Below, one piece after another: positions 1 through 61,400 of a stretch of 64,000 nucleotides of DNA (position 1 is its first letter; each line of letters opens with the position of its first letter). A program made the translations under genes and the position numbers. The DNA is from Tubulanus polymorphus. Its lineage: Eukaryota > Animalia > Nemertea. Below the pieces are notes generated by a model, which ran no database searches, was not told the origin of the DNA, and saw only the letters and a program-made list of their open reading frames with translations. The stretch is from NCBI RefSeq assembly GCF_964204645.1, contig NC_134027.1, forward strand, positions 10,882,485-10,946,484, read 5' to 3'.

Positions 1-362
1 TCCCCGAATCTACTCAACTAACCCTTTTTATCCCCAGAATATCACCCCAAGTCTCAATCCCCTTCCATTGGTTAATTACTAAATAAACTCCCCAACATTC
101 TATACAATTATATAACTAAAATACTCTACAAGTAGCGAGATCGCCACTCAAGATCATGGTCTAACCAATGTTTATATAATAATAAGCCTAATGGATACTA
201 ACTAAGAATTGGAACAATGAAGCCTAAAGATGCCAGTTTGAAGGGTCTTGAATGTCGATCTACACTAAATGTCATAAACACAGCAGATGTTCTGCCCTAA
301 AGTTACATGAAAATATTTTATAAACAGCATTACTATTTAGCCAAAATAGCTACATCGTAACA
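1..362 (-). repeat. 3' LTR (partial, truncated by window edge)
   Basis: Direct copy of 5075..5436, ending ...TCGTAACA on the + strand at 362. Confidence 0.9.
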
Positions 363-1650
363 CTCGCCTGGGCTTAATTAAGTGCCTGTCCTCAGGTACT
401 TCACAAAGGAAACCATCATGTCTCGCAACAAAAATAAAGAAATCACACGCACAAAATATTCAATTCAATTCAAATCCTTGAGGGATGGAAATCGAAAAAA
501 AAACATTACGGACATGACAATTGCTTTGGACTATACACACGATTCCGCTAATCCTCGATACAATTAACTATATACAGTGCTTCTCTGTTGAAGGCAAAAC
601 CAAAAATCTAGAACCTAGTCTTAAATCTGACATCCAAAATCAGTCAATAATTTGAACGCACTTCAACAGATACCGCCTAAACCTAAAACCGGGGCATTAC
701 TCCGCCCTCCTTTTTTCTTATCAGAAGAGGGTAAACTCCTGCTTTTCTGTGCTGGAGTGTAGTCTCCAGAGGAAACCAATACATTTATCCGTCAGCAATT
801 CCAATAGAACTGGACGTTCCAACTCCCTACTCGACACGTGGATCATCCTGGTTCATCCCATCGTGGACTTCGATGTGGGAACTGGTACATCTCATTCCTT
901 GGTAATCAGCGTTGGTTGGTCATCAGCTCCTGGTATTTTGGTCAGCAGTCGCGCGCGCATGTCAAGTAGAGCCTACCATGCATCCCAAACTGGATATAGA
1001 CTTTGTCCAGGAAGGGGACGGATTGGAATAAATGTATAGGTGACCATTCTAGCCCTAACCTAAGAGGATCAGCTTTTCTAAAATTAATCAATCTTCTGTT
1101 GCGTCTATTGTAACAGTGTCCCTGAAAGCAAAAGAACAAAAGCCAATTCTCTGTGCATGGAAGTTCGACCGATACCATTACTGAATGAATGATTTAATGA
1201 GTTTTAATCTGTACAATCGTTCCTCCAAAAATTTTCCTACAACGCCTGGGCTTTTATGGTTAACTATATCCTAAGCAATCGACTATTTACAATGACCGCC
1301 CATCTTACAACACAAAAATCCACTCTTGGCTCTATCCTATACCTCATACCTCAATAAATTTCTACCTGAACTCTATTTTTAATATTTATCTCGACTATTT
1401 ACATCTGACTCCCCCGCCTGGGCTTTTTTAAATTAGACATGCCCACATGTCTAGACATAGACTATTTTCCCTAGCCCCGGGTCCGAGTTCAACACGTGGT
1501 ACCGGTACGTATGACTGGGGTGCCCATAATGTTCCTTTACGCACAGGGTCACTGCCATCACACCCTCCGCTTATCACAACTTGATTTCTGTTAAATACAC
1601 TACCCACTTGCTTTTCACGACTATTTACAACGATATCCCTACTGATCTAA

Positions 1651-2925
1651 TTAACTTTTAATACGGCTCCTGTGGTACGTATGACTGGGGTGCCCATAAT
1701 GCTTCTTGAGCACAGGGTCACTGCAATCACACATCCTACTAACCACAACTTTGTCACGCAACGGTGGAGGTTTCCCTCGAAGGTGACCCTTATCTCTTTT
1801 AACTCCAACCCGGTTCCGATATCTGCATTCTACTGGCCCGATATGTTTTACCCCAGGTTTAAACACACTTGTATATTGGTGCGAATGCTCCACAGAACTA
1901 ATACGAGGGACAAGGGCAACGTCATTACACTGCTCAACTCCAGTGAGACCTAATCCCTCCTGGGCACCAGCTGAACTTTCGACCAAAGCGGTATCCGGAT
2001 CATATACTCCCAGATCACGAATATCATTCAACACAATTTTATTCCTAGCAGATAAATCTAGGGGCTCATCTGTCAAGCCAATGCAAGTTATACAATTATC
2101 AATATTGTTACAATCACTTTCAACTTCATGAACACGCAGATCTAACGGATTATCACTAATGGAACTAATCGATCCGTCATTAAGATCCTTTTTACAACCG
2201 ATATCAGATTTACGAACTGACAAATCTAAAGGTACATCAAGCATTTCTTGACCAGAATGCATACATAGTACATGGACAACCTTTTTCGACCTACTGATTG
2301 ATAAATCTAACGGCTCATTAATTTTAACAGTTTCCTTCGTAATCTCTGTATTTTTACTCATTTTCCCTGACCTATCTACATACAAATGTCCAATCAAACT
2401 CGAATGATCTACCTTCCTAAATTTCTCTTGATCTATCACATCATTCCCGACTATTTCATACGATTTTCTATCAGCCTCTCCCGTCAACGACTCAGTAATG
2501 CTGACGTCATCCGTCTGAGTGCTGATACTCTCAGTACTGTGTCCCCTAGACTTAAGTACAACCCCTGACGTATGGTCATCCAACCCAAGCTTCCATCCTA
2601 CAGAGTCCTGAAGTACTGAAGTTCCTACCCCCACTGATTGGGGATCCTCAGCCTTCCCTGGATTCTCCAAATGTGCGTCCCTTTGGACCGCACACGATTT
2701 ATGGACAGCTTGCTGGCCTACCACCTGATCAGTTCTGGGCCCTTTCAGTACTGACGCCTGGTTCTGGACACCGGAGGAATCTTTCCCGGGCATCGGAATC
2801 TTTCCTCTCCTGAGCTCAACACAATTATTAAAACTAGCATGATTATTATGGTTATTAGATAAATACTTCCTTTTAATAGGCTGCTCAGGCCTTCGCCCGT
2901 CAGACTGAGCAGTTACTGAAAACCC
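1651..2925 (-). CDS. ORF2 in the pol position: unknown, probably disordered protein with 4x PLDL[S/R] and one STQT motif; probably expressed as a Gag fusion
   Basis: ORF track 1651..2967 lies in the -1 frame relative to gag. It contains EPLDLS, VPLDLS, NPLDLR, EPLDLS and SISTQTD. No D[ST]G, YxDD, HHCC or DDE pattern was recognised. Confidence 0.75.
   Translation of the reverse strand, partial: GFSVTAQSDGRRPEQPIKRKYLSNNHNNHASFNNCVELRRGKIPMPGKDSSGVQNQASVLKGPRTDQVVGQQAVHKSCAVQRDAHLENPGKAEDPQSVGVGTSVLQDSVGWKLGLDDHTSGVVLKSRGHSTESISTQTDDVSITESLTGEADRKSYEIVGNDVIDQEKFRKVDHSSLIGHLYVDRSGKMSKNTEITKETVKINEPLDLSISRSKKVVHVLCMHSGQEMLDVPLDLSVRKSDIGCKKDLNDGSISSISDNPLDLRVHEVESDCNNIDNCITCIGLTDEPLDLSARNKIVLNDIRDLGVYDPDTALVESSAGAQEGLGLTGVEQCNDVALVPRISSVEHSHQYTSVFKPGVKHIGPVECRYRNRVGVKRDKGHLRGKPPPLRDKVVVSRMCDCSDPVLKKHYGHPSHTYHRSRIKS
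2881..2925 (-). promoter_or_regulatory. Programmed -1 ribosomal frameshift signal
   Basis: Heptamer G_GGT_TTT (2925..2919) is in the correct phase with gag (TCG GGT TTT CAG TAA). A 6-nt spacer is followed by an 8-bp stem CTGCTCAG/CTGAGCAG (2912..2905 / 2888..2881). The -1 frame stays open to 1651. Confidence 0.8.
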
Positions 2926-4492
2926 GACTCGGTCCCGGAAGGAACTGAAACTACATTTTGTGTACAATCACGGTAACCATGACCGATCTGTTGACACCGA
3001 TAGCAACGCAAAGTTTTTTGAGGACGGGACCTCATCTCAGGATGGCTATTTGTCCACTGAGACGCCACAGCAGCAATCGGAGGTCTTTGGCTTCTCGTGC
3101 TGTAAGATGGCACCTCAGGAACAGCCATATCCCTTACGCGAGCCTGAACTTTTGCCTGAATGAAAGTTCTAGGTCGTACGGTCATCAAGTGAGCCTTTAG
3201 CTCCGACCGCAGACCCTTAACAAAATATTCGATGTGTGATTCTTCTGAACCACCGACAATCTCGAAATATTTTTCCATCACGGAGATATACGCCTCTAAC
3301 GATTCACCAGGCATTTGCCTGCGTTTTTCCATTTTAGCTTTTTCCGTATATCTCCAACTTTCATCATTAAATTCGGCCATCAAAACATCTTTCGCAATTA
3401 AATAATTCGACTGATCCTCTAACGATAACTTTCTAAATATGGCTAATGCCCGACCTTCTAAATAAAACGATAAGGTTGTCGCGTAATCACTGTCAGTGTA
3501 CCTAGCGTAACGTTCGACCTGATATAGGAACTCTCCGAGACGTTCGCGCTGAGTTCCTGAAAACTTCATCGGCTTCGGGATATCTTTCATGCGATGAACG
3601 CGATCCTGGATCTCTCGCATATCCCGAACCGTAACTGGTCGATTTTCAAAACGATCGCAGTCAACCGTAGCCGGCACGCGTTCGTTATACCGCTCAGATA
3701 TAACCGATCTGGGCCGAACCGGTCCTGCTACATGTGAATGACCAACATTCTGAGGGGGTTGACCGACCAAAGACGCCTGTTGACTAGGTGGCGGCACCTG
3801 CGCACCCATGACCTGTCGTGATCCAGAGGACCCATATGTGTTGGCTGATTTTGTGGCGAGTATCTTTGATCGTAGCCATAATCTGCGGTCGGCAGTACTG
3901 GGGCACTGTTTAAATGTGCCAACTGATTTACCGGCGGGTAATGATTCGGTTGATTATAACCCTGATCAACCGGCCCTAATTGAGCCATGGCCTTAGCCAA
4001 TGTGGCTTGATCAAGAGGCCGATCATCCTCGTGATATCCACTCGGACCTTCACTCATCCTCTGGTGAACCTCTCCCCCTTGTAACTGGGCAGAAGGTCCC
4101 CTCTGCGCTGAACGTACAGCTCGCGAGCGAGTGCGCGTACCAGACACCGAATTTCTAGCCCCGGAGGGAACAGTGTCTGATCCGCCACCCTGCCTGTCCC
4201 GCACGTACGTCACTGCCTGACACAGGACATCCAAATTATGCATTTGCCACATTTCCTGAGGAACATTAATCGAACCATCAGCCCTGACTGAAACACCCTG
4301 TGGCAAAGATCCCCTCGAATTCCTGCCAGATCCTACCCTTGAAGAACCTTGCCTTGCCCCCTGATGGATCGGCATAAGCGGAATATTACGCGGCCGAAAC
4401 TCGTACATATAATCCGAACAGCTAGATAAAGAACTAACTGAATCACTATCAGATTCATAATCGACCAAAGCATTAAATGATGTATAAGCCAT
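2913..4492 (-). CDS. gag: Gag (disordered N-terminus + Ty3/gypsy capsid + CX2CX4HX4C nucleocapsid), split into two overlapping ORFs by a probable 2-nt insertion near 3838
   Basis: ORFs 3728..4501 and 2913..3809 overlap. The sequence has capsid-like motifs (KFSG...FL..VERYA; RRQMPGESLEAY; YFVKGLRSELK) and the knuckle CYRCQQIGHGYRDC. Removing CA from CCA-ACA-[CA]-TAT-GGG joins them into one ~525-aa frame. Confidence 0.85.
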
Positions 4493-4661
4493 TTCTATCA
4501 ATAAATAAAATCTCTAACTCAAGTTAACAATAAAAATATACGACAAATTCCCTGTATATACCTAGCACAAGAATATATAGACTATAAATCTAAACCGAAT
4601 TCTAACGAAAAGAGCACCGTAGGTTCGAACCGTTTAGAATTCAGCTAAAAAGAGAATTTAA

Positions 4662-4676
4662 CACGTTGGGGCGCCA
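4662..4676 (-). promoter_or_regulatory. Primer binding site, tRNA-Lys-like
   Basis: TGGCGCCCCAACGTG lies 1 nt after the 5' LTR. It resembles the tRNA-Lys(CUU) PBS TGGCGCCCAACGTG with one extra C. Confidence 0.8.
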
Positions 4677-4677
4677 G

Positions 4678-5436
4678 TGAAACGATCTTCAGTGTCGTTC
4701 GATCTTAGTGGTCGTCGCTTTCGCTACGATAACTCTGAGTGAAACGGTTTAGTATATATTTCTTACCTATCGGTATCTCTTGCTACCGATAACCTATTTG
4801 TAGACGATTTCCCTAGCTCCTAGAATCCGGGATATAAAAAGTATACTTAACTTAACTCAGCAGTTTGCCTTTATCTGGTATACTATGATATATGTTTATT
4901 CCATTATCCGATATATAATTTCTTCTATGGTGTGGCTACAATCCTATAGTCGACCCGTCTGATCCAGATCCAACCCCTCGGCTAATCTCCCGTACGATTC
5001 CGATCTGATCTCTCGGTTCTCCTCTCTCTACTACTCTACTAGTTCCCGTTCTCCTCTCTTACTTGGTCTCGTTCTCCCCGAATCTACTCAACTAACCCTT
5101 TTTATCCCCAGAATATCACCCCAAGTCTCAATCCCCTTCCATTGGTTAATTACTAAATAAACTCCCCAACATTCTATACAATTATATAACTAAAATACTC
5201 TACAAGTAGCGAGATCGCCACTCAAGATCATGGTCTAACCAATGTTTATATAATAATAAGCCTAATGGATACTAACTAAGAATTGGAACAATGAAGCCTA
5301 AAGATGCCAGTTTGAAGGGTCTTGAATGTCGATCTACACTAAATGTCATAAACACAGCAGATGTTCTGCCCTAAAGTTACATGAAAATATTTTATAAACA
5401 GCATTACTATTTAGCCAAAATAGCTAAATCGTAACA
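4678..5436 (-). repeat. 5' LTR (759 bp)
   Basis: On the minus strand it begins TGTTACGA and ends TCGTTTCA (imperfect inverted ends). It contains TATA-like GGGATAAAAAGGG (~5097-5109) and AATAAA (~4896-4901). Confidence 0.9.
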
Positions 5437-5496
5437 CTTGATACTAACGCAGTAAGAGTATATTCTATCTACATCTGATGATGATTTTTGTTCCAG

Positions 5497-6337
5497 GCAC
5501 TGATGCTACGACCAATTTTATGGAACCGACGACTACTCCGATATCCACGGCCTCGCTACCCACGACGCCGATGGTGCCCGATTTTTCATTAGTTTGGGAT
5601 ATCATTCTTCGGAACAAACAACAAACATCAGGCACTGCTCTGTTACGAGATGCAAAATTTCAGAAAGCAGGTAAAATAAAGGAATGGCAAATCTACACGA
5701 CTTTAGAATACCCGGGTTACCTGTCTGTTTGGAGATTTATATCAGCCCCACATATTTATGAGTTAATTGGGCTGAATTACATCCCTCAAGAACCTGCGGG
5801 TGATCGAACTTTGCTCATCCCAGAAGTCGAAAGAATTTCGGTACGAATTGGCGATGTCATCGCAACCTCAATTTACGGAAATCAAACCAACTCGCCTTTC
5901 GGCTACACCAAATCAGACACGTGAGTATTACAGCCGTTTCATTAGACTCCTTGACACATCCTCGGTTGCTATGTTGGAGTTGAGCCTCCTCCCGCCCCCA
6001 GTTCCCGATTCCTCGATACGCTCGCCCGATACGTTATATGGTTGGCGCTCTTCCAGACAATCCCGGCTAGCCGGATATTCTGATAAAAGATTCAGTCCGA
6101 GTTAGTAGACAATGCCTTCTGATGAAAATGTTCTCACTTCATGCTCATTAGTATCTGTAGAAAACTCTACACAACAAGGTATCAATACGGGTTTATTCCA
6201 CCTATTTCAGACCGGATCAAATGACTACGCGAATATTAAAGATAAAAGCGTTGCCGTCTGTCGGTGCTACTGCCGAATTCAACACTGCCTTAAGCTACCC
6301 TTATAGAGAATACTCCGTGCGACCCGTTCTGGAATAA
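5497..6337 (+). CDS. Paralogue A of the secreted PAN/apple-stalk-beta-domain protein (exons 2-3; exon 1 presumably upstream of the window)
   Basis: Exons 5497..5920 and 6211..6337 have AG/GT boundaries and the same phases as paralogue B. The protein ends YSVRPVLE* and is closely similar to 9509..9932 and 12027..12156. Confidence 0.8.
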
Positions 6338-9022: not shown

Positions 9023-12156
<3,134 letters not shown>

Positions 12157-15099: not shown

Positions 15100-15129
15100 T
15101 AACTAATAATTTCCTCTGTATCACAGCGA

Positions 15130-15780
15130 AAAATAACACAGTTAAGCAGTTAAGCGTTAACAGAGAAGACGTGAAATTAGGTTCCGTTGTAATAATTCAT
15201 GATGATACGGTCCCAAGATTAAAGTGGAAGTTGGGCATCATCATCGGTTTATCCAAAAGCCAAGATGGTCGGATTAGATCATGCATTATTAAAACCGCGA
15301 ATGGAGTTACTAATCGCCCTGTTTCGAAATTATATCCACTTGAAGTCGAATTAGAATGTTATATTGCATAGTAGTAGTAATTCCAGTATTGACGAAAACG
15401 TTGATACTTCTAATTCTGTGAAATCTAGACCAAAACGGAAACCTGCAGAGATAGCCAAAGGTAAAATTTTTCAAAGATATGCAGTAAATTATGAATATAA
15501 ATTCACCAATTACTATGTATTGTTTGTATGGAGTTTTGTATATAGTTTGTGTAGTTTTTTCCAATTGTTATCACGTATTGTTTGTAACGTAAGATTTGTT
15601 AGTCTAATTTTAGGCATTGGGTTTTGTTCTGGGCGGAGTGTTGCGACTTACATCACAATCCTATAGCATTTATATCCAACCAATCACCTCCAACAGTTGA
15701 TTTAATAACGTTGAATTGTCTAAGTACTGTTGTATAGAATATTCATGTATGTATAGCATGTAGAGCATATATTATTCGTT
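15130..15780 (+). mobile_element. BEL/Pao LTR retrotransposon 3' remnant (integrase C-terminal region, PPT, start of LTR)
   Basis: VKLGSVVIIHDDTVPRLKWKLGII...DGRIRSCIIKTANGVTNRPVSKLYPLEVE is the BEL/Pao post-integrase (DUF5641-type) signature. PPT GGGCGGAG is followed by TGTTG at 15639. Confidence 0.85.
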
Positions 15781-16740: not shown

Positions 16741-18299
16741 TGTCTCGTATTTCTTAGTTTCCAATGGTTGCATGAGCAAGGACGAAATAGCGGCGAATCG
16801 CACCGTTATGAATGAAGTTGCTGTACAGGCAATTTGCCTACGATCATCAAATGATATTCTGAGCGCAAAATGTCTCTCTTCTACTTACATTTACAATGTG
16901 ATAATGTAATATACCGGTATGATAATGTTTCACATATTTATGTTTGAAAGTTTACTCTACGTATCACTCACATTCTGAATGTCCCGGCTTTGTTTGTGAT
17001 TTTGCGGCGGTCTTCGGAACAATTACTTGACCATCGCAGTGTTCTCCATATGCTGGAATCTTAAGGGCTTAAGGGGCTGCAGTATCAGACATCGTGGCTG
17101 CTGTAGTAGCAAGGCTTTCAATCCTCCAAAAATAGAGACCATTAAGCTAAATTTTGGTGTAATCTTCTATTTTTCACATTAGCTTAATATATTTCAAAGC
17201 ATCTATCAGCATTTTGATAGAATCTTGACATCATCATGACTAGGGTTATAAATCAATCTGTCTTTAGGCTGGATCTTCAGTCCTCGTCCTCGTTCTTGAA
17301 TTTCTTCCAAGGCTCCCGTATATAACTTAACGACTTCTTAAATCATATATTCGTTTATATCTCTTGACTAGATGTGTACAATCTCTTCCTGGAGCTCTGT
17401 TCTCTCAAACCTCTAAAATCTCTAACTTCCTTTAACCCTTTTTTCACGCGAAAACGCGAAAAATAATAAGATAAAACTAAAAACTATTAATAACAATATT
17501 GTATGTACGTAATAAATAGCCAATGTAAGCCAATTTATCAAATATTGTATTTCGTCCGTTCGAATTTCAGGTCAAGGTCACAATATCTTTCCAAAAATTA
17601 ATTTTTATTTCCGTACTTTACCAAAAACAAACATTTAATTACGAATAGTCATTGAATACACGAAAGTTACACACTTTCTACGTTTAAATGTTCTCGATTT
17701 ACGGTTAGTTTTATAAATAATCGATGAAAAAAGTTATAATCCAAAAATTTCGAAATTCAACTTCTCGCGCCGATTGTATTGCCATCTGGTGGTATGAATT
17801 GGCAGTAATAATGATCGGAAAGCCGCCATGTTTTTATGCAGTGTCGCTGGCGCACAATAGATATACATAGAGAGGAGAAAGTGCCGCGAATATTCATTCC
17901 ACGATGATTTGATTACAATTACGGCGCCCAGAATCAAGTCACGCATTCGTACTGTAAGTATACGCATCGACAGATCGTGCATTTCAGAAGGGAATGGGAC
18001 CTGGGAAGGGGCAAGGAAGGAGTGAGAACGACGAAAAATACGACTCAAACTGACTCGAAAAAAAGGCTAAGTTTGTTTAGAAAGAGCGAGATTTTACAAC
18101 TTAGGCCTTGTGCCGATCACAGGGGCCTGGTGCAAATAATGTGACCACACTACCATAATGGCAAAATATGGTAACAAGGACTAAACCACGGCGCATGATC
18201 TAAGAAAGTAAAATGTTGAGTACCAATCCAATGCGAGACTGCGATGTTGGTTGGCCTTCTCCACAGGCACAAAGTCATTTTTGATAGTAGTAGTCCTCC

Positions 18300-19147
18300 T
18301 AGTTAGTTACCTAATCGTTGGTGGTAAGCTTTTTATAATCGGATGGGCTTATACCAACGTTAGGGATGACAAGGACCAAAACACGGTTGAAAAAAGTAAC
18401 ACTTCAAAAATATACTTTCTATTCACTTCAGTCCACAATTAATAGCTTAATTCACAAACTAACACAGGTACCTTTCGAAATAATCCAATTTTATGTATGT
18501 TTCGAGTGATTAATCAACATTATTTTGAGAAATTAATTAATTTCTCCACAAATTTCGCCATTGGCCGCCATTTCTCTGTATTGCACATGTGGCATGATAA
18601 GACAAGGGGACCTACAAGGATTTATATAAAACTTCCAAGACGAAACGACAATTTTTATTTTTGATGGTTTTCCAACTTTTATATCAAATCTTCATGTTTT
18701 CCATAACAAATAATGAAATAATAAATTTCTGGTAAAAGAAAAATGTGAATAAGTGTTGATTTCTTAATTTTTTTTAATTTCGTCGTTTCGCTTTGTTAGT
18801 TTGTGCTGTTGTCCTGGCCTCAGTCCACAGGTGCCAGCACCTCCAGTAATTTTCAAAATGGCAGCTGTTGACTGGACGGAAATTTACTCTCACTTTACGG
18901 CCGATTTGCACATGGATTAAGATCGTCAGGTGAGGTGTTATAGGTATCAGACAAACTACGAATCTGTTGTGCGTCGATTACAACAAAAATGAGACAGATA
19001 TCTTAAGAGACAATGAAATGCCAGGCAAATTACTCGTCAGTCAAATTGGCTGACGAAGATTTCATACAAAAATGACCTTCCCATTCCTGACTGTGGTTTG
19101 TGAAAATATCCGATCGTGAAACTAAACCACAGACAGGTTACTGACTA
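18300..19147 (+). mobile_element. Non-autonomous DNA transposon, 848 bp, 9-bp TSD (copy 1)
   Basis: Termini TAGTTAGTTACCT...AGGTTACTGACTA; TSD TAGTCCTCC on both sides; near-identical to 58795..59641. Confidence 0.9.
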
Positions 19148-26300: not shown

Positions 26301-29300
26301 TGAAACGTGGTGTTACAGTACAGTTGCGCCATCTATTCTATTTTGGCTGGCGTTAGAGTGTCTTATGCCAACGGTCTGGCCGATCAATAATCAATCATAT
26401 GCTATGCTCAAATCTATTTTTAGCTTGTATTCAAACGCAATTTCAGTACGACAGTAGCCTGTAATTTCACTACAAATGGTCGAATTGAGCATATTAACCT
26501 AACATATGCTAATTTAGTCATTTATTTTTCTTTATGGTGCGCAAAGTTTCATATTTGTTTAGGAATTGTACCAAAAAAATTTGATTTATTTGAGCATGTT
26601 TTTTTATGCTGTCTTTAATAAAACATGTGAAAATTCAATGCTTTTTGCATCGGAAGAACTTTATCTTGTCAAAATCCAACGATTTGTTTTGATAGTTATG
26701 GGCTTACAAAGACGAAACCCCTCAAAATCTTAGTTATATGTTATTTTGTGTTGGCCTGGTTTGGACTCCTCCAGCTGGTGCCCGTTGAGCATAACTAAAC
26801 AAAATGATGGCACAATTGAATATGTTGATATATTCATCATTGCTAGCGCGATTACTGATACTCAAGGCGTATTGGACAAGGTCCGAGCCAAATTTTGGCA
26901 TGAGACAAATGATTTCGTTTGGATTGCAACTGGTACCGGAATGACCCACTACACTTTGAGCATTGTTCCGTATCGAGTGAGTGGTTTATATGTGAACGCG
27001 CTCTCTAATTAGCCTGATTTCCTCGAGCCTGATCCATACCAATTTGGCCCAGGCTGAATCGTCTCCGTGTGATCGCGGCTGTAGTTTCTCTTAGTTTTAG
27101 TTGTTTTATGTCATTCTCAGAAAGTCGTTAGTATATGTTAAAAATAAAAAGGCCCCAGTATAGATCCCTGCAGAATTCCGTAATCAATGTCCTTCTTCGG
27201 AATAAGAAGTGGAATCCGGGAATCTTCTGGAAACCACCGAATCTATAGATATAGTTTAAAGAATACGTATAAAGAATTATGTCAATTTATACGTAATTTG
27301 TGCAAAAAAGTAATTTATAAATTGTATATTATTTGTTATGAATTGCTATAATTTTCAGAAAATAAATATATAATAATTTATAGAGACAGACCGAAAATTA
27401 CCGATTCGGGTCTCAACGCAAGCTAACTGCTGAGCTCAGGCCGATTGGATTTGAGCGTATTCAACTGTTGAAACTAATGTGGGAACGATGTTTTTATTTC
27501 AGAGCCCGTGGGTCGATGTCTTACGCAACGTCGTTCGAAGTTGTTACCGATTCTACGGGAATGAGCATCTACTGATGTCAAGTGCTGCTGCCTCCAATTG
27601 CCACGCGCCGACTAGTATGCACATGTACAATAACAAAGATGGCTCCGTGTCGATACTGAGTGGCAGTACGTTAGTAACGGTTTGCAATACGGCGCCGAAG
27701 GTCAGTCTTGAATTGAAGAGGAAAGAAAACAAGAAAACTAACTTAAAAGTTTATTGACGCTTCGAAAAACAACGCGCATATTGGTTTGATACTGTCGACA
27801 AAAGATGTTATTAATGATATACACATATCGACGAAGTTATTTTAGATTTGAATATATCGATAATTGAATTGACCGGCAACCAGTCTAGCCCCGATATATA
27901 TCGATGACGTAGCGCCCATTATCAAAATCTATCAAAAATGGAATAAAAGTTATGAAATTTATTTAGTTACAAAAAAAATGCCAAAATTCACAATTGTAAT
28001 TGTTATTTGAAACGCCAATATTGATGTATATAACGCATACTAGGTATCAACGTATATAAATGTGTTTCTTGGGTATTGTATTTTGCGCAGGTGAATTTGA
28101 CAGCTTCAAACATTAAAAGTGAACGAAAATCGAAACGGCTTCTAGAAAAAGGTAATAAATACCTCAGTCCGAATAGCTTTAAGAGGGGAGTTCAAGGATC
28201 TAAATGTGACCCCAATTCTGAAAAACACAAGGAATTGATACGGGAAAAACGCAAGTCCTGAAAAGTTATGGAAATTCGTTATTGTTTGCAAACGCTCGGA
28301 AAAGTTATGCATGAATTAATCAATGAATTAAAAATACGTTCTCCCTGGGTTAAGAAATACAATATATGTTCTCCATACGATCAAATTCCTAAATTGGACA
28401 AGTTCCTAGTCGGACAAGTTATCGCAGTCCAAGAAAAAAGATCCAATTCGAGTCGAGTTTACAGGGTCCCAACAACTCCTTGATTCCGGAGAAAACTCCT
28501 TCAATTTTGAGAAATTGGCTATTAAAAATCCGGGATTTTTTTTTAAACAAAATAAGCCAGTTACCAAATCAGAAACCAACTAAGTAGTGTATAGGATAAA
28601 AAGAGGCTTACAAAACTGCTGACAATGGTTTACCTTGATTTTGATAGTACCGATTCAGGAGGAGTCTATTACGGATATAGAAGTGGTGCAGATGTTAAAA
28701 CTACTCGCGCCAGTCGATCAAAAGTCGATTAGAGTTAACCAGCGGATAGTTGAAAAATTGACGTTAACCGATTAGCACTCAAGCCGCCCTTATCCACCTT
28801 GCCTATTACTCCTCAAGCCGCCGAACCCACCCCAACACTTTTTTGATGCTGCACAAAAACGGTTATAGTGGGATTCGAAACCCAATAGCTTAAACTAGAC
28901 ACCCAAGTCCTCAAATACAGAACAAAAATCAACATCCTCCTATTTCAATTTCTCGAGTATTTAAAGTATGAACATGACAGATCTGAGCGCTCGATAAATT
29001 TTGGGGGGCCAAAAGGACACAATTTCGGTGCCCCAACTCATCAAATCATACGAAAGCCTTGACTATTTACTACAAAATAACATGAACTTATAATGCTTGG
29101 AAATAAACAGCAAATGAGCTATTCGGTATCGTGATGAACTTTGATTTTCCTTTGAATTTTCTGAGGAGTAATTGACACTACATAGCGAAATTCCTGGATG
29201 CTAATGAGTTCATTAAAAGCTCATTATTACTGCGGTATTTATCCATCAGTTATCTTTAACCAACTTTTGAGCAACGAGCCCCTTATGTCAAGGAATTAGT

Positions 29301-31904
29301 GATCTGTCGCGACCCTGCGGTAATTTCGTTCTCGTTCTTTACGTTACAGAATTCGTCGATGAACCGGTCATGCAACAGTTATATATCTGTTACTTTTGCG
29401 ACAGCGATTACGCGAATCGCGAAACGCTGATGCAGCATCAGCAGTTGTGTAGCAAACGACCGACGGAGCTTCAGCGTATTATGGTATCGCCGCGGAAGCC
29501 GCCCGCTCGACAACAGCCGAAGGCGTCCGAAAAATCCAAACTCCGTCATCACCCGCGAGAACACGTCGAAAAACCGAGCTTCGTCAGCGCGTTGGGCTTG
29601 ATATCGAAATCCGAACTGAAAACGCTCGAACGCGACTCGCGCAAATCAATTGAGGTGATCAACGTCGTCAACGACAGTCCGCCGGCGATTCCGGTCAGTC
29701 CGCGTATGCCGACGACGCCTCGAACGCCGAAGTCGTTGATCTCGTTCGACAATCAGTTCAACCACGGCGCAAAGGAGGTAATCTGCATATCGAGCAGCGA
29801 CGAAGAGGATGTAGATGAGGAGAGCGATGCCCAGTCGAACAACGATGGCAATCGGTCAGCGGCGTTGAATAAGAATTCCGGTCTGTTGAACATCGACGTC
29901 ACGTCAAATCTCGGCCGCAAGTTGAAGCAGCACATCGAAAGTTTCGAATTGCACCATCTATCCGTCGTCAAAGACTACGACCACTTCTGTCATACGCCGC
30001 GTAAAAGCCGCGTGTACTCGAAGCTGCGCGATCGCGACAACAACTTTCCGGTCATGTTTCGCAAACGCAAGGCGACGCGACATGCGCACGTTTACAAGTT
30101 CACGCGGCGACAGCGCGAGAACTTCATGTCACGCCTGCGTACGGGACTCGACGCGAAAAGCCGCGTGCTGTCGAAGCAGATGCGTCCGTGTTCGGTCATC
30201 GTGCGGCGTTTGACGCGCGAGAAAATCGATTTCTTCGCGCGGCGGACGCGGTTCCCCGTTCTCGAGCGGCTGCGGCAGAGTTTCAAATCCGACGCGGTTT
30301 CCGCCGCCGATATGCCGTCCGTGTTTCCGACGCTGCCGGCGCTCGTCTCGCCGAACGTCGATCGTCTGTTGGGCTTGAAAACGAAAACATCGAACCTGCT
30401 GTCGTCGGCGAACATCGCGCTGGCGATCCGCGGCGAAACGAGCGCGCAGATGACGCAGCAGAAGGTCACCGTTTACAAGTCGTTGTTGTCCGACTATACG
30501 CACTTCATCGACAAGCAGAAGAAGATCCAAGGAATCGGCAGCAAAACGCAGCCATTGATTATCGATATCAGCGATAGCGATTCGAACGACGACACGAACC
30601 GCGAACGACCGACGAAAAAACAGCAACCGCAGCCCCAAGGTCCCGTAGTTGGTATTCAGCCGCCTCAGGTCGTGTGGGTTGGACCGGGTAGTCCGGGTCA
30701 AGTTATGGGGCGTTTGTCGCCGTCGGTGTGTCTGTCGCAAGATAACAACGCCGCCGATACGAGCAACGCATCGCGATCGAAATCCGTCGACGACGAACCG
30801 CTGCGAGCGACGAACACCGCAAAACGTAGATTGCTTAATTCGCCGACGGACTTACCGGCGTCAAAGCGACAGCGGAAAGACGACGATGTTGCCGTGATTT
30901 CCGAAAAGTCGACGACATTTTCGCCGCACGTCGTGTTCAGGTGTCATTTGTGTACGACCGAGTCGCATTATAAAAACAACGCTCAAGCCGAAATCAATCG
31001 CCACATTCTTAACAAACACAAAGGCGAAGTAGTCCACCTGATGGACTACCGTCCGCACAAGTCGGAAGGCCAGTCGGTGCACATCGTCGAAGCGATGGCC
31101 CGTGTGCCGACGGCCGTGACGCGGCTCGTTAACACGAAAGCGTCCGGTAAACAATTGAAACCGGTCGTTCGAAAACCGACAACCTCGACAACGACGAAAC
31201 CGTTGTCGTCAGCTCATAACGTTAAAACCAATTCATTGAGCAAACACCTGACGATGCTAGCCACGGGAAAAAATAGTCAAGTATCGACGCAGTTGCAGTC
31301 CTCGCAGTGCTCGCAGAGAAGAGAGTCGGCATTATGCGCTATACCGACGTATTTACACAAATCGTCGTCGTTTCAACCATTTGTTATGTTGAAATCTGGT
31401 CTTACGGCTGCGTCCGATAAAACTGGTAATACCGCTTCGCTCGGTATGATGGCGTCCAGTTCGACTAAAACCGCCGGCGCGAAGACTTGCATCGCTTCGG
31501 CGCCCGTTAAAATCGGCGCTAATAAAAGTACACCGCTCGTCGTGATGACGAGGTCGAACTCGCCTACCAAACCGGGAATCGTGAATACTCAAAATACGAA
31601 CGTCGTTTCGACTTCCGCGACGAAAAGCCGTTGTCATCAAACCGCAAATTCCGCGTTGTCGGATAACGGTAAGACCGAGCGACGAAAAACGGCGCGCGGT
31701 AAAAACTTACGACGCGTTTCGGCGCGAGCGGGCAGTGTTTCGCAGAGCGTCGCGGCAGCGCCAAAATTGCCGACCTCGCTCGAAGGAACGGGTAAATCGG
31801 CGCGGAATATCCCGCCGTCTTCCAGCGCACCGCGTGTCGGAGATTCGTCTGACGATAGCGAAGATGAAGTCGTATTAATCGACGAAGTTATTTGTTTGGA
31901 ATAA
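23339..31904 (+). CDS. NRF1/Ewg/P3A2-like DNA-binding-domain protein with C2HC and C2H2 zinc fingers and multiple SIM-like motifs (~1022 aa); divergent paralogue, not canonical NRF1
   Basis: Exons 23339..23593, 27503..27700, 28091..28151 and 29350..31904 join in phase (3069 nt). LPSLTID..M...LCAFIPQM...PEWWPEDVPF...SDPR...W..VLR.VV.SCY..YGNEHLL...NKDGSVS matches the NRF1 pattern as I recall it. Fingers are CYFC...HQQLC and CHLC...HILNKH. Confidence 0.82.
23735..23976 (+). repeat. 60-bp minisatellite x4 (intronic)
   Basis: Unit TCCTGCACCATTATGCCGATAATAGCCATTGGCCCTATGTCATATAGCGCAAAAAATACA. Confidence 0.95.
25032..26294 (+). mobile_element. Helentron-associated interspersed element (HINE/DINE-1-like) with a central 154-bp tandem array
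   Basis: 5' end: T-run, subTIR GCCCACTTGGG within a hairpin, and (CGTC)n microsatellite. 3' end: subTIR CCCAAGTGGGC, short hairpin, CTAGTT. Four 154-bp units lie at ~25625..26225. Confidence 0.82.
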
Positions 31905-58438: not shown

Positions 58439-61400
58439 ATGAACAAGGACAGCGTAAAAGAGATAACACGTCAGTATTTTTTCAGTTGGGTTAAAGGCCT
58501 AACGGCAGTAATGCCGTGTCAGTGATAAGTAAGAATGCACAGGGGATGAGAGTCTGGCTGGACGTACATACAGGGTCGGAGCTGAGAGTGAGATACAAAT
58601 TACACTGTCCTGAGGAGGGCAGGACCAGATTCTGATCGATGACAGCCGCGTACGTGGTTGTACTGTCTTTGATGTTAAAAATCTGGGGAAATCATGAAAA
58701 ATCCTGGGTATTTGGTAAGCCAATCATAAGAACGATATGAAAGAATATAAGGCTAGGTAAATTTCAGAGAGAGTTCATCAATCTGACCCCTGCCTAGTTA
58801 GTTACCTAATCGTTGGTGGTAAGCTTTTTATAATCGGATGGGCTTATACCAACGTTAGGGATGACAAGGACCAAAACACGGTTGAAAAAAGTAACACTTC
58901 AAAAATATACTTTCTATCCACTTCAGTCCACAATTAATGGCTTAATTCACAAACTAACACAGGTAGCTTTCGAAATAATCCAAGTCTATGTATGTTTCGA
59001 GTGATTAATCAACATTATTTTGAGAAATTAATCAATTTCCTTACAAATTTCGCCATTGGCCGCCATTTCTCTGTATTGCACATGTGGCATGATAAGACAA
59101 GGGGACCTACAAGGATTTAGATAAAACTTTCAAGACGAAACGACAATTTTTATTTTTGATGGTTTTCCAACCTATATTTCAAATCTTCGTGTTTTCCATT
59201 ATAAATAATGAAATAATAAATTCTGGTAAAAGAAAAATGTGAATAAGTGTTGATTTCTTAATATTTTTCAATTTCGTCGTTTCGCTTCGTTAGTTTGTGC
59301 TGTTGTCCTGGCCTCAGTCCACAGGTGCCAGCACCTCCAGTAATTTTCAAAATGGCAGCTGTTGACTCTACGGAAATTTACTCTCACTTTACGGCCGATT
59401 TGCACATGGATTAAGATCGTCAGGTGAGGTGTTATAGGTATCAGACAAACTACGAATCTGTTGTGTGTCGATTACAACAAAAATTTGACGGATATCTTAA
59501 GAGACAATGAAATGCCAGGCAAATTACTCGTCAGTCAAATTGGCTGACGAAGATTTCATACAAAAATGACCTTCCCATTCCTGACTGTGGTTTGTGAAAA
59601 TATCCGATCGTGAAACTAAACCACAGACAGGTTACTGACTAACCCCTGCCCTGACAACGCAGTTGCATGTCAGTTGTCCGTGCTACTGTCGTCATCCCAG
59701 TGCCGTGGAACTGGAGGAAACTTGTTTTTTGCCTAACACTTGGTCTTTGCTGGGCTTTTTCAAAAAGATTGCAGAGTAATCTCATGTCCACGCAGGCCCA
59801 TGACACAACTTAATTTGCACCCAAACTTACTTTATTAGGTACCGGTAATGAATGAAAATTAACTAGGAAGCTAATTTCTACTATTCACTTCAGACCTCAA
59901 GTAGTTACTTATTTGTTGAAATACTCATTCACACATTTGTGAACTTCAACTTTTTAAGAAACGCTCGGGCTATTTTTATGACGCCATAGACGGACGACCC
60001 TAGCTATATTTACGACGTTTCATTCTGATTGGCTTATTCACGTTGCGCATGCGCACTGGGGTGCGCGACTTCAAATTCATGGCAAGTGTGGAGAATAGAG
60101 TTAGAGAAAATAGAGGGGATAGAACGAGACTCGAAACCCGGGCAGTAAATTACTAGCGCAGCATCATACCATTAGACCACCGAGCTCACTGAAAACCATT
60201 TGAATGTTTTAACTACATATAGCTTCACCTTTCCCTAATCCTATCCCCACGAGGTAAAACGGAACCTAACCCTAACCCTCTGGACCCTTTTGACACTAAT
60301 CCTCTCCCCTCTAGACCATTATCCTAAATTCAATATAAACCGTCGTAGATATAGAATTTAGGACGCTGCAAATACAGCCACACAAAAAACATATTTTCGC
60401 AACTTTATTATGCAGGTTCCCAGCCCCTTACACAACACGTCAATCCCACAGGGACTTGTCACAATAAATTGATAATAATGAAAAGGAATGATAGCGATCT
60501 TGTTTGTTAAATTAAACAGGTCTTCAAAAAGAGAAGAAGAAAGTGGAACTGAAGGGCAACCTTGTAGAACAGGCTGAATATTGTAACTGCATTGGAGAAA
60601 TATATTCCAAAAATGGTAATAAAACTTCAGAGATCCAGTTTGAAAAGTTTAATCTGAATCAGGGTGGCTACTGACCAGGAAAACCTCGAAAAGTCAGGGA
60701 ATGAGAAAAAATCAGGGAAATCTCAGCGAATTTGACCAATTTTGCGTAAATAAACTGGAAAACTCAGGGAATTTTGTTAACCACACGTGTCTTTATCAAT
60801 ATACACGATTCATGAAAAATTAGTAGATTGAAACATAAAAAGTAATTTTTCAGATTTACTAAAGGGAATTTTCCATTGTAACATGCAAAATTCAGGGAAA
60901 ACTAGCGAAATATTTTTGAATTGGTGAAAAGTGGCCACCCTGTGATTCTTGAATAACCTCAGACAATCCTAAGTTATCCAGGTCTCGATTTAGTTACCGA
61001 TAATTGATTTTGTCGTCGATCATTCTTCAGGTGATTTTACAAGTGCCATTGACGAACACAAGGAGGCGCTGAATCTATTTGAGGCTCTGGGCGATGAAAT
61101 CGGACGGGCCGTGGCGCACAGGCGCGTCGGCGAATGTTTGATGGAACAAGGGTATTTCGATGACGCGTTAAAAAACCAAAAACGCTACCTCGACCTGGCG
61201 CGGTCGTGTCAAAATAAGACCGAAGAACAGCGCGCGTGGGTGACGCTCGGGCGCACGTATCTGTGTCGGTACGAAAACGTAAAGGGACCGACTGCGGGTG
61301 TCGTTTGTTTACAGCAGGCCGAAGAGGCTTTCGAAAAAAGTTTAGAAATTTCCGACGATCTTAAACATACGATCAGTGTAAGAGACTACGACGATATGCG

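Follow-up and report, generated by a model that had tools for sequence, protein, structure and literature searches.

A pol-less LTR retrotransposon of the nemertean Tubulanus polymorphus with a putatively frameshift-coupled second ORF containing CtBP-type motifs

What takes the place of Pol in a long terminal repeat (LTR) retrotransposon that lacks pol, and what could it do for the element? The question is raised by an element of Tubulanus polymorphus located on the minus strand at positions 1–5436 of a 64,000-nucleotide stretch of contig NC_134027.1 (assembly GCF_964204645.1, positions 10,882,485 to 10,946,484); this stretch is referred to as the window, and all coordinates are window positions. 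At the place of pol, the element contains a second open reading frame (ORF2, or X), which is predicted to be reached by a −1 ribosomal frameshift and encodes four motifs of the type bound by the corepressor CtBP together with one LC8-type motif. The element appears to be a real and apparently undescribed variant of the non-autonomous LTR elements, found so far in one species, for which an anti-corepressor function is proposed here on the basis of sequence. The features on which the proposal depends are as follows (A and B are two groups of copies described below).

1651–2922, minus strand: ORF2 (X), 423 codons from the slip site in the −1 frame (1651–2967 from stop to stop)
2919–2925, minus strand: slippery heptamer G GGU UUU, in frame with gag and two codons short of its stop
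2881–2912, minus strand: candidate stimulatory hairpin of 32 nt, 6 nt past the heptamer, predicted at −14.1 kcal/mol
2512–2523, minus strand: STQT followed by DD, a predicted LC8/DYNLL-type anchor, residues 149–152; inside the A/B-identical stretch 2501–2531
2299–2313, minus strand: CtBP-type motif 1, PLDLS, residue 219; inside the A/B-identical stretch 2297–2327
2218–2232, minus strand: CtBP-type motif 2, PLDLS, residue 246; state in group B not visible
2134–2148, minus strand: CtBP-type motif 3, PLDLR, residue 274; inside the A/B-identical stretch 2128–2159
2050–2064, minus strand: CtBP-type motif 4, PLDLS, residue 302; residues 299, 301 and 307–311 differ among the differences listed, the core not

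The preliminary description of the locus had placed an ORF free of pol motifs in the −1 frame where pol would sit, and this was borne out. No Pfam family was found in ORF2 or in the six frames of 366–2050 with stops read as X, regular expressions for the protease, YxDD and GPY/F motifs had no match across the internal region, and tblastn with a protease–reverse transcriptase (PR–RT) relative and the other fetched proteins detected no pol remnant. As a test of chance for the open length of ORF2, none of 5,000 base shuffles reached 300 open codons. The Ty3/gypsy pol order of protease, RT, RNase H and integrase is missing since the element has no pol; hence, it is classed, judging from the sequence, among the non-autonomous derivatives, its Gag being of gypsy type, and not as an autonomous gypsy member. 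A word-index search found no ORF2 homologue at near length, residues 85–325 had no match at E ≤ 10 among proteins of 768–2190 amino acids (weak evidence), and ORF2 matched neither the gag-relative profile nor any fetched Gag relative. The nearest Atlas feature matches of ORF2 (a ZNF238.2 fragment, E1A, NRIP1 and LCORL) scored 0.78–0.85, all below 0.9, and are leads only. The ORF2 protein is likely disordered. Its charge-hydropathy index is near zero, and a single-sequence structure model gave a predicted local distance difference test (pLDDT) value of 32, which is uninformative on disorder because the folded part of gag likewise reached only 46.

The four PLDL[S/R] motifs and the single STQT reported previously were all located in ORF2. 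PxDLS-type motifs are the CtBP-binding motifs of adenovirus E1A, Epstein–Barr virus EBNA3A/3C and Marek's disease virus Meq. At least three P-x-D-L-[STR] motifs were obtained in none of 100,000 residue shuffles of ORF2. The motif starts are spaced 27, 28 and 28 residues apart, leaving linkers of 22, 23 and 23 residues. The four motifs differ in their codons, and of the six pairwise comparisons of the 66-nt units downstream only one gives an alignment better than background, which points to retention of the motifs at the protein level. It is possible that the array arose by an old duplication of which the motif is what lasted. A fifth PLDLS is present within ORF2 on the opposite strand (2543–2557, plus strand), where the frame has no ATG and extends over about 30 codons, and is probably due to chance. 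The STQT-DD site fits the published rules for LC8 motifs, though binding is absent for many TQT peptides (PMC6607443). A DNA pattern for three spaced PLDL motifs retrieved 19 viral and 110 metagenome stretches. None of the 19 viral stretches, inspected by their ORFs only, was retroelement-like, and among the 34 metagenome ORFs with at least three motifs (loci L020 onwards, many of them short), those scanned had no gag-profile or PR–RT match. One metagenome contig (L032:685–1056, minus strand) encodes a tandem repeat of 16 residues in which PLDLS occurs five times, with neither gag nor pol nearby.

The −1 frameshift signal proposed earlier between gag and ORF2 also withstood analysis. G GGU UUU is the only in-frame X XXY YYZ heptamer among the 347 gag codons, it lies immediately before the gag stop, and the −1 frame is open from there into ORF2. 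The predicted stability of the hairpin is matched by 1.4% of the 40-nt windows of the element; no Rfam match was found. The position of the heptamer makes a persuasive case for a predicted frameshift, whereas the hairpin structure alone does not.

Other copies of the element were traced in four public sequencing runs of one study and in a raw-read run with the same species label from another study (runs used below: X1, X2, X3 and X5). Joints seen only in X2 and X3 were left out of the evidence; some loose ends in these two runs look like what we take to be proximity-ligation linker. In the group A copies, ORF2 was identical to that of the window, while the group B copies differed from it by 6–11% (33 of 319, 15 of 197, 13 of 233 and 20 of 183 bases). 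Group B joins position 1668 to position 1114 and then runs into the same 3′ region, again without pol; the loss of pol is therefore a family trait and not a private deletion. The summed depth in X5, a rough guide, was about 8 for gag, 2–12 for ORF2, 5–10 for the 3′ region, 5–12 for the flank and 65–85 for the LTR. This indicates that the interior of the family is low-copy and that its LTRs are far more numerous. The depths of gag, ORF2 and the 3′ region are similar and give no sign, at 90% likeness, of surplus copies that have gag but not ORF2; no near-identical copy of this kind is seen. The view that this is a non-autonomous family is thus upheld by two diverged pol-less groups and by equal interior depth. 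Only two of 118 ORF2 reads of X5 were A-like at ≥99%. No helper element was seen among the loose ends listed from the reads (146 more lie beyond these). Six X5 reads, together with X2 and X3 contigs, match ORF2 through STQT and leave it at 2506 into other sequence; they may come from a more diverged relative or a truncated copy, and could point towards the helper. In runs X5 and X2, a rearranged copy has the tail of ORF2 fused to LTR sequence in inverted orientation (positions 1913 and 4864). A one-base insertion at 1709 was dropped as a mis-laid copy of an internal 79-bp duplication (1504–1582 and 1674–1751).

Differences among copies were analyzed for gag and ORF2 from 40 of 322 and 40 of 133 entries, respectively; these were chosen by support and mix several copies, and the resulting ratios are rough. 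Sixteen of the 21 listed gag differences were synonymous and five non-synonymous (omega-like ratio 0.11), suggesting that gag is under purifying selection between copies. ORF2 showed the reverse, with 6 of 35 listed differences synonymous, 29 not and no stops (omega-like ratio 1.8), and the split between the two ORFs was significant (Fisher p 1.7e-5). The ORF2 frame is nevertheless common to the copy groups down to about 1800 (approximately residue 390). In group B, the gaps within 1839–2909 measured 3, 3 and a net 9 (a cluster of small gaps being pooled into the last), as against 0 of the 10 listed LTR indels being multiples of three (Fisher p 0.0035), and frame-breaking gaps were found in ORF2 only below about 1800, past the last motif. 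Four stretches of at least 31 nt are identical between A and B in 1818–2531; three hold motif 1, motif 3 and STQT, respectively, and the fourth, ending at 1868, holds no motif. Outside this interval, the identical stretch 2727–2756 is without a motif and the one from 2880 onward spans the hairpin. None of the listed ORF2 differences fell inside a motif core. Simulation gave p values of 0.012–0.09 for three of the five cores lying inside identical stretches and 0.016–0.07 for four cores being free of change. Spared cores and changing flanks are what one would expect if short motifs sat in a disordered scaffold that evolves fast, though the statistical support is modest. The preliminary description had made its reading depend on ORF2 being kept open across copies with its motifs; the in-frame gaps, the absence of stops and the retained motifs agree with this expectation, and the synonymous to non-synonymous split of the whole ORF2 does not.

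The gag of the window copy consists of two parts.

3728–4492, minus strand: N-terminal part of gag, low-complexity, first ATG at 4492; a frame break divides it from the capsid part
2913–3953, minus strand: capsid part of gag, of Retrotrans_gag/Ty3_capsid type, with a CCHC knuckle at 3005–2964

A direct Pfam scan of gag detected only the CCHC knuckle (PF00098, E 0.003, below its cut-off). A full HMMER search returned 542 matches at E ≤ 0.001, and the identity to these Gag relatives was 22–38% among the 150 matches listed. A Retrotrans_gag and/or Ty3_capsid match was found in 10 of the 12 representative relatives scanned, in agreement with the Atlas assignment, and the window Gag is accordingly of predicted Ty3/gypsy type, its capsid type being recognized through its relatives. 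The word-index search with gag found nothing, the viral and metagenome contigs searched contained no related locus, the PDB sequence search returned knuckle-level matches only (E ≥ 0.18), and Foldseek on a low-confidence single-sequence gag model gave no match. Capsid and knuckle were thus recovered as described initially; the gag of the window copy is, however, not intact but split over two overlapping frames (3728–4513 and 2913–3953), and the copy as assembled would therefore make no normal full-length Gag. The sole contig over the break in each of the runs X1, X2 and X3 differs from the window, and that of X1 is unbroken in frame by frame arithmetic. The break may be private to the window insertion or an assembly error; contigs drop rare variants. 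Within this stretch, a further gap is present in the X2 contig and in 7 of 8 X5 reads, so that a gag with a break is no rarity among the copies. At U UUA AAC there is another heptamer, located at 3914–3908 (minus strand) in the frame of the N-terminal piece, and its −1 frame is the capsid frame. A second programmed frameshift at this site was considered and rejected, as no stable hairpin follows and the contigs of the three runs differ at the break. Four distant Gag relatives (P0038, P0042, P0127 and P0156) have Gag and protease followed by 366–535 residues without an RT motif, and in P0038, P0042 and P0127 hydrophobic stretches occur close to the protein end; the four are possibly other RT-less derivatives in the same Gag group.

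The remaining parts of the element are those of an LTR retrotransposon, with direct LTRs ending in TG..CA.

4678–5436, minus strand: 5′ LTR, 759 bp, TG..CA, with an imperfect terminal inverted repeat; read depth about 10 times that of the interior
1–362, minus strand: 3′ LTR, cut by the window start, about half visible
4662–4676, minus strand: primer-binding site (PBS), starting TGGCGCCC one base past the 5′ LTR
363–375, minus strand: polypurine tract (PPT)-like motif, an imperfect purine tract adjoining the 3′ LTR
376–1650, minus strand: 3′ region, non-coding, without pol remnant, holding two extra copies of the PPT-like motif

The near identity of the LTRs stated in the preliminary description was confirmed, positions 1–364 and 5075–5438 showing one mismatch in 364 columns; with half of the LTR comparable, this single mismatch points to a recent insertion of the window copy. 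The PBS was likewise found just internal to the 5′ LTR and is presumably of the tRNA-Lys type. The PPT-like motif is purine-rich but interrupted, and its further copies, at 1253 and 1425, bring it to three occurrences. A GC-richer part of the 3′ region (665–1050) has short ORFs on both strands (656–1039, plus; 942–1193, minus) without a Pfam match, and is perhaps a relic of captured coding DNA.

What could such an ORF do? We propose that a minor Gag-X fusion binds host CtBP through its four PLDL[S/R] motifs and neutralizes it, keeping the element transcribed; this we hold tentatively, at somewhat less than an even chance. Translation of RNA from the 5′ LTR would yield Gag, and the minor share of ribosomes that slip at G GGU UUU would produce Gag-X, while reverse transcription and integration would be provided by the Pol of a helper with the same LTR ends and PBS. 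X would be a disordered scaffold with constraint only on its short motifs. RAI2, in which two motifs lie 21 residues apart, polymerizes and inactivates CtBP (PMC11187106); the motifs of X with their 22–23-residue linkers could cross-link CtBP tetramers in the same way and derepress LTR promoters, and CtBP is described to suppress transcription from LTR promoters in Drosophila (PMC7061269). STQT would recruit LC8, which would dimerize X and increase avidity, or would couple particles to dynein. Access of X to the nucleus and a benefit to the element are inferred parts of this mechanism. The fullest form of the proposal, a frameshift-dosed CtBP antagonist of RAI2/E1A type that stands in place of Pol and lifts LTR silencing for both the element and its helper, making the element a cooperating parasite and not a pure cheat, is unlikely as it stands.

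Several observations weigh against a CtBP antagonist. ORF2 as a whole is clearly without signs of purifying selection, unlike gag, and the statistic for motif sparing is modest, three of five cores being merely unchanged giving a non-significant p of 0.11–0.29. The stability of the hairpin was equalled by 96 of 1000 dinucleotide shuffles, and an 86-nt fold had a z of −0.47. The window copy has a broken gag, and among the other copies there are truncations, rearrangements and the further gag gap. A Gag fusion would stay largely in the cytoplasm unless import or cleavage intervened. The pattern scans of viral and metagenome stretches brought up no further case of the layout, and the searches described above no relative of ORF2. 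Broad attacks of transposable elements on host silencing are, moreover, thought to be selected against (PMC6719617).

Three other explanations of X were weighed against the same data. X could be the expanded transframe (pre-protease) region of an autonomous Gag-X-protease-RT-RNase H-integrase family, from which this lineage lost, in the distant past, all that follows X; frameshift and motifs alike would then be inherited, CtBP binding could still occur, and the element would be a deletion derivative and not an innovation. The slippery site and hairpin lie exactly at the usual gag–pol junction, the knuckle-to-protease distance is 113–238 residues in distant Gag relatives (5 of the 150 matches listed had a protease motif), the roughly tenfold LTR depth leaves room for unseen elements, and the more diverged copy matches through STQT before departing at 2506. 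Against this, none of 10 protease-bearing Gag relatives contains PxDL[STR], the search with residues 85–325 against long proteins was negative, if weak as evidence, and none of the loose ends or joints listed at the 3′ end of ORF2 runs into recognizable coding sequence at 80% likeness. We regard such an inherited spacer as somewhat unlikely, but as the leading alternative. It is also conceivable that X recruits its partners instead of neutralizing them, with LC8 carrying packaged Gag-X to the nucleus and CtBP tethering it to chromatin, or that X acts as a repressor of the element or of its helper. Recruitment of CtBP is the normal role of PxDLS motifs (PMC12992792), a Gag fusion would bring X into particles at a Gag-Pol-like stoichiometry, and foamy virus Gag is described to use LC8 for transport of incoming capsids along with a chromatin tether (PMC3705263). 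X has, however, no DNA-binding domain recognizable in the Pfam scan, and four motifs at RAI2-like spacing favor cross-linking over simple recruitment; a recruiting role appears distinctly unlikely.

In the third explanation, X derives from a host CtBP-binding protein of which a piece was captured, or from a repeat amplified long ago, and now drifts neutrally, its open frame being a leftover or merely avoiding a stop right past the slip site. The non-synonymous share of the ORF2 differences is compatible with neutrality (binomial p 0.25), the tail past approximately residue 390 is frameshifted in group B, and the opposite-strand PLDLS at 2543 indicates that such matches can arise without function. 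Neutral drift is opposed by in-frame gaps, by 0 stops among the 35 listed differences and by cores spared while flanks change; there was also time for decay, the synonymous sites of gag being clearly diverged between the same copies; no host homologue of ORF2 was found in the searches. We consider neutral drift decidedly improbable.

Comparison with known systems places the element next to several of them without matching any. As in TR-GAG elements of plants, there are two LTRs, a retained gag, no pol and mobilization by a helper, the last being inferred here (PMC8704663). TR-GAG elements are described with a single ORF, whereas the nemertean element, from an animal host, has a second 423-codon ORF with host-binding-type motifs behind a −1 signal, and membership in TR-GAG was rejected on this ground. 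With Ty3/gypsy elements (Metaviridae) that use a −1 Gag-Pol frameshift, it has in common the LTR ends, PBS, capsid and CCHC knuckle, and a heptamer with a predicted hairpin at the end of gag, but those elements have protease, RT, RNase H and integrase and this one has none. Troyka LTR retrotransposons, reported with CG..CG termini (PMC12440569), are ruled out by the TG..CA termini. RAI2 with its tandem ALDLS motifs resembles X in having repeated PxDLS-type motifs in an unstructured protein, as X probably is, with a linker of 21 as against 22–23 residues (PMC11187106). X differs from RAI2 and E1A-type proteins in its four motifs, its LC8-type site and its predicted fusion to a retrotransposon Gag; it has no sequence homology to them and is a predicted CtBP ligand. 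VANC of the Arabidopsis VANDAL elements (PMC6719617) and CERV of the Caenorhabditis elegans Cer1 element (PMC10309623) are likewise element-encoded, non-enzymatic proteins that help against host control. Unlike X, VANC belongs to a plant DNA transposon and is reported to act against methylation in a sequence-specific way, CERV is reported as a spliced RNA-export factor of an autonomous element, and what these sources describe of the two includes neither a frameshift Gag fusion nor a CtBP ligand. Gag-linked LC8 binding for capsid transport is described for foamy virus, where a coiled coil within Gag is the site of the interaction and where that account mentions no CtBP motif array (PMC3705263). 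No description of the present architecture was found in the literature, nor, which would count even if X were an inherited spacer, of any retrotransposon polyprotein with an array of CtBP motifs, with repeat databases, most subscription papers and supplements outside the scope of the search.

Whether proteins of animal transposons counter host silencing is an open question in the field. A review covers plant cases of anti-silencing by transposable elements, namely VANC, mir820 and Athila tasiRNA (PMC6719617), and a 2025 paper on the pathway of PIWI-interacting RNAs (piRNAs) urges that counter-silencing mechanisms be probed (PMC12992792). As piRNA-pathway proteins have repeatedly gained CtBP motifs (PMC12992792) and CtBP represses Drosophila LTR promoters, an element-encoded CtBP ligand, if true, would be a directly testable counter-move to host repression. 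The element would then be one of the rare candidates for a retrotransposon of animals able to disarm repression by its host, in which the Gag-Pol frameshift switch is reused to dose an effector.

Other features of the window lie outside the element. The insertion point is about 40 bp upstream of the ATG of the first copy of a tandemly duplicated unknown gene (5448–5924 and 9448–9936, plus strand; about 84% identical, without a Pfam match). A DUF5641 remnant, presumably of BEL/Pao type and metazoan, directly follows a TG microsatellite of about 800 bp (15102–15371, plus strand). An 877-codon GC-rich ORF without a Pfam match is present at 29271–31904 (plus strand), and a two-copy repeat at 18298–19023 and 58793–59517 is 97% identical over a distance of 40.5 kb.

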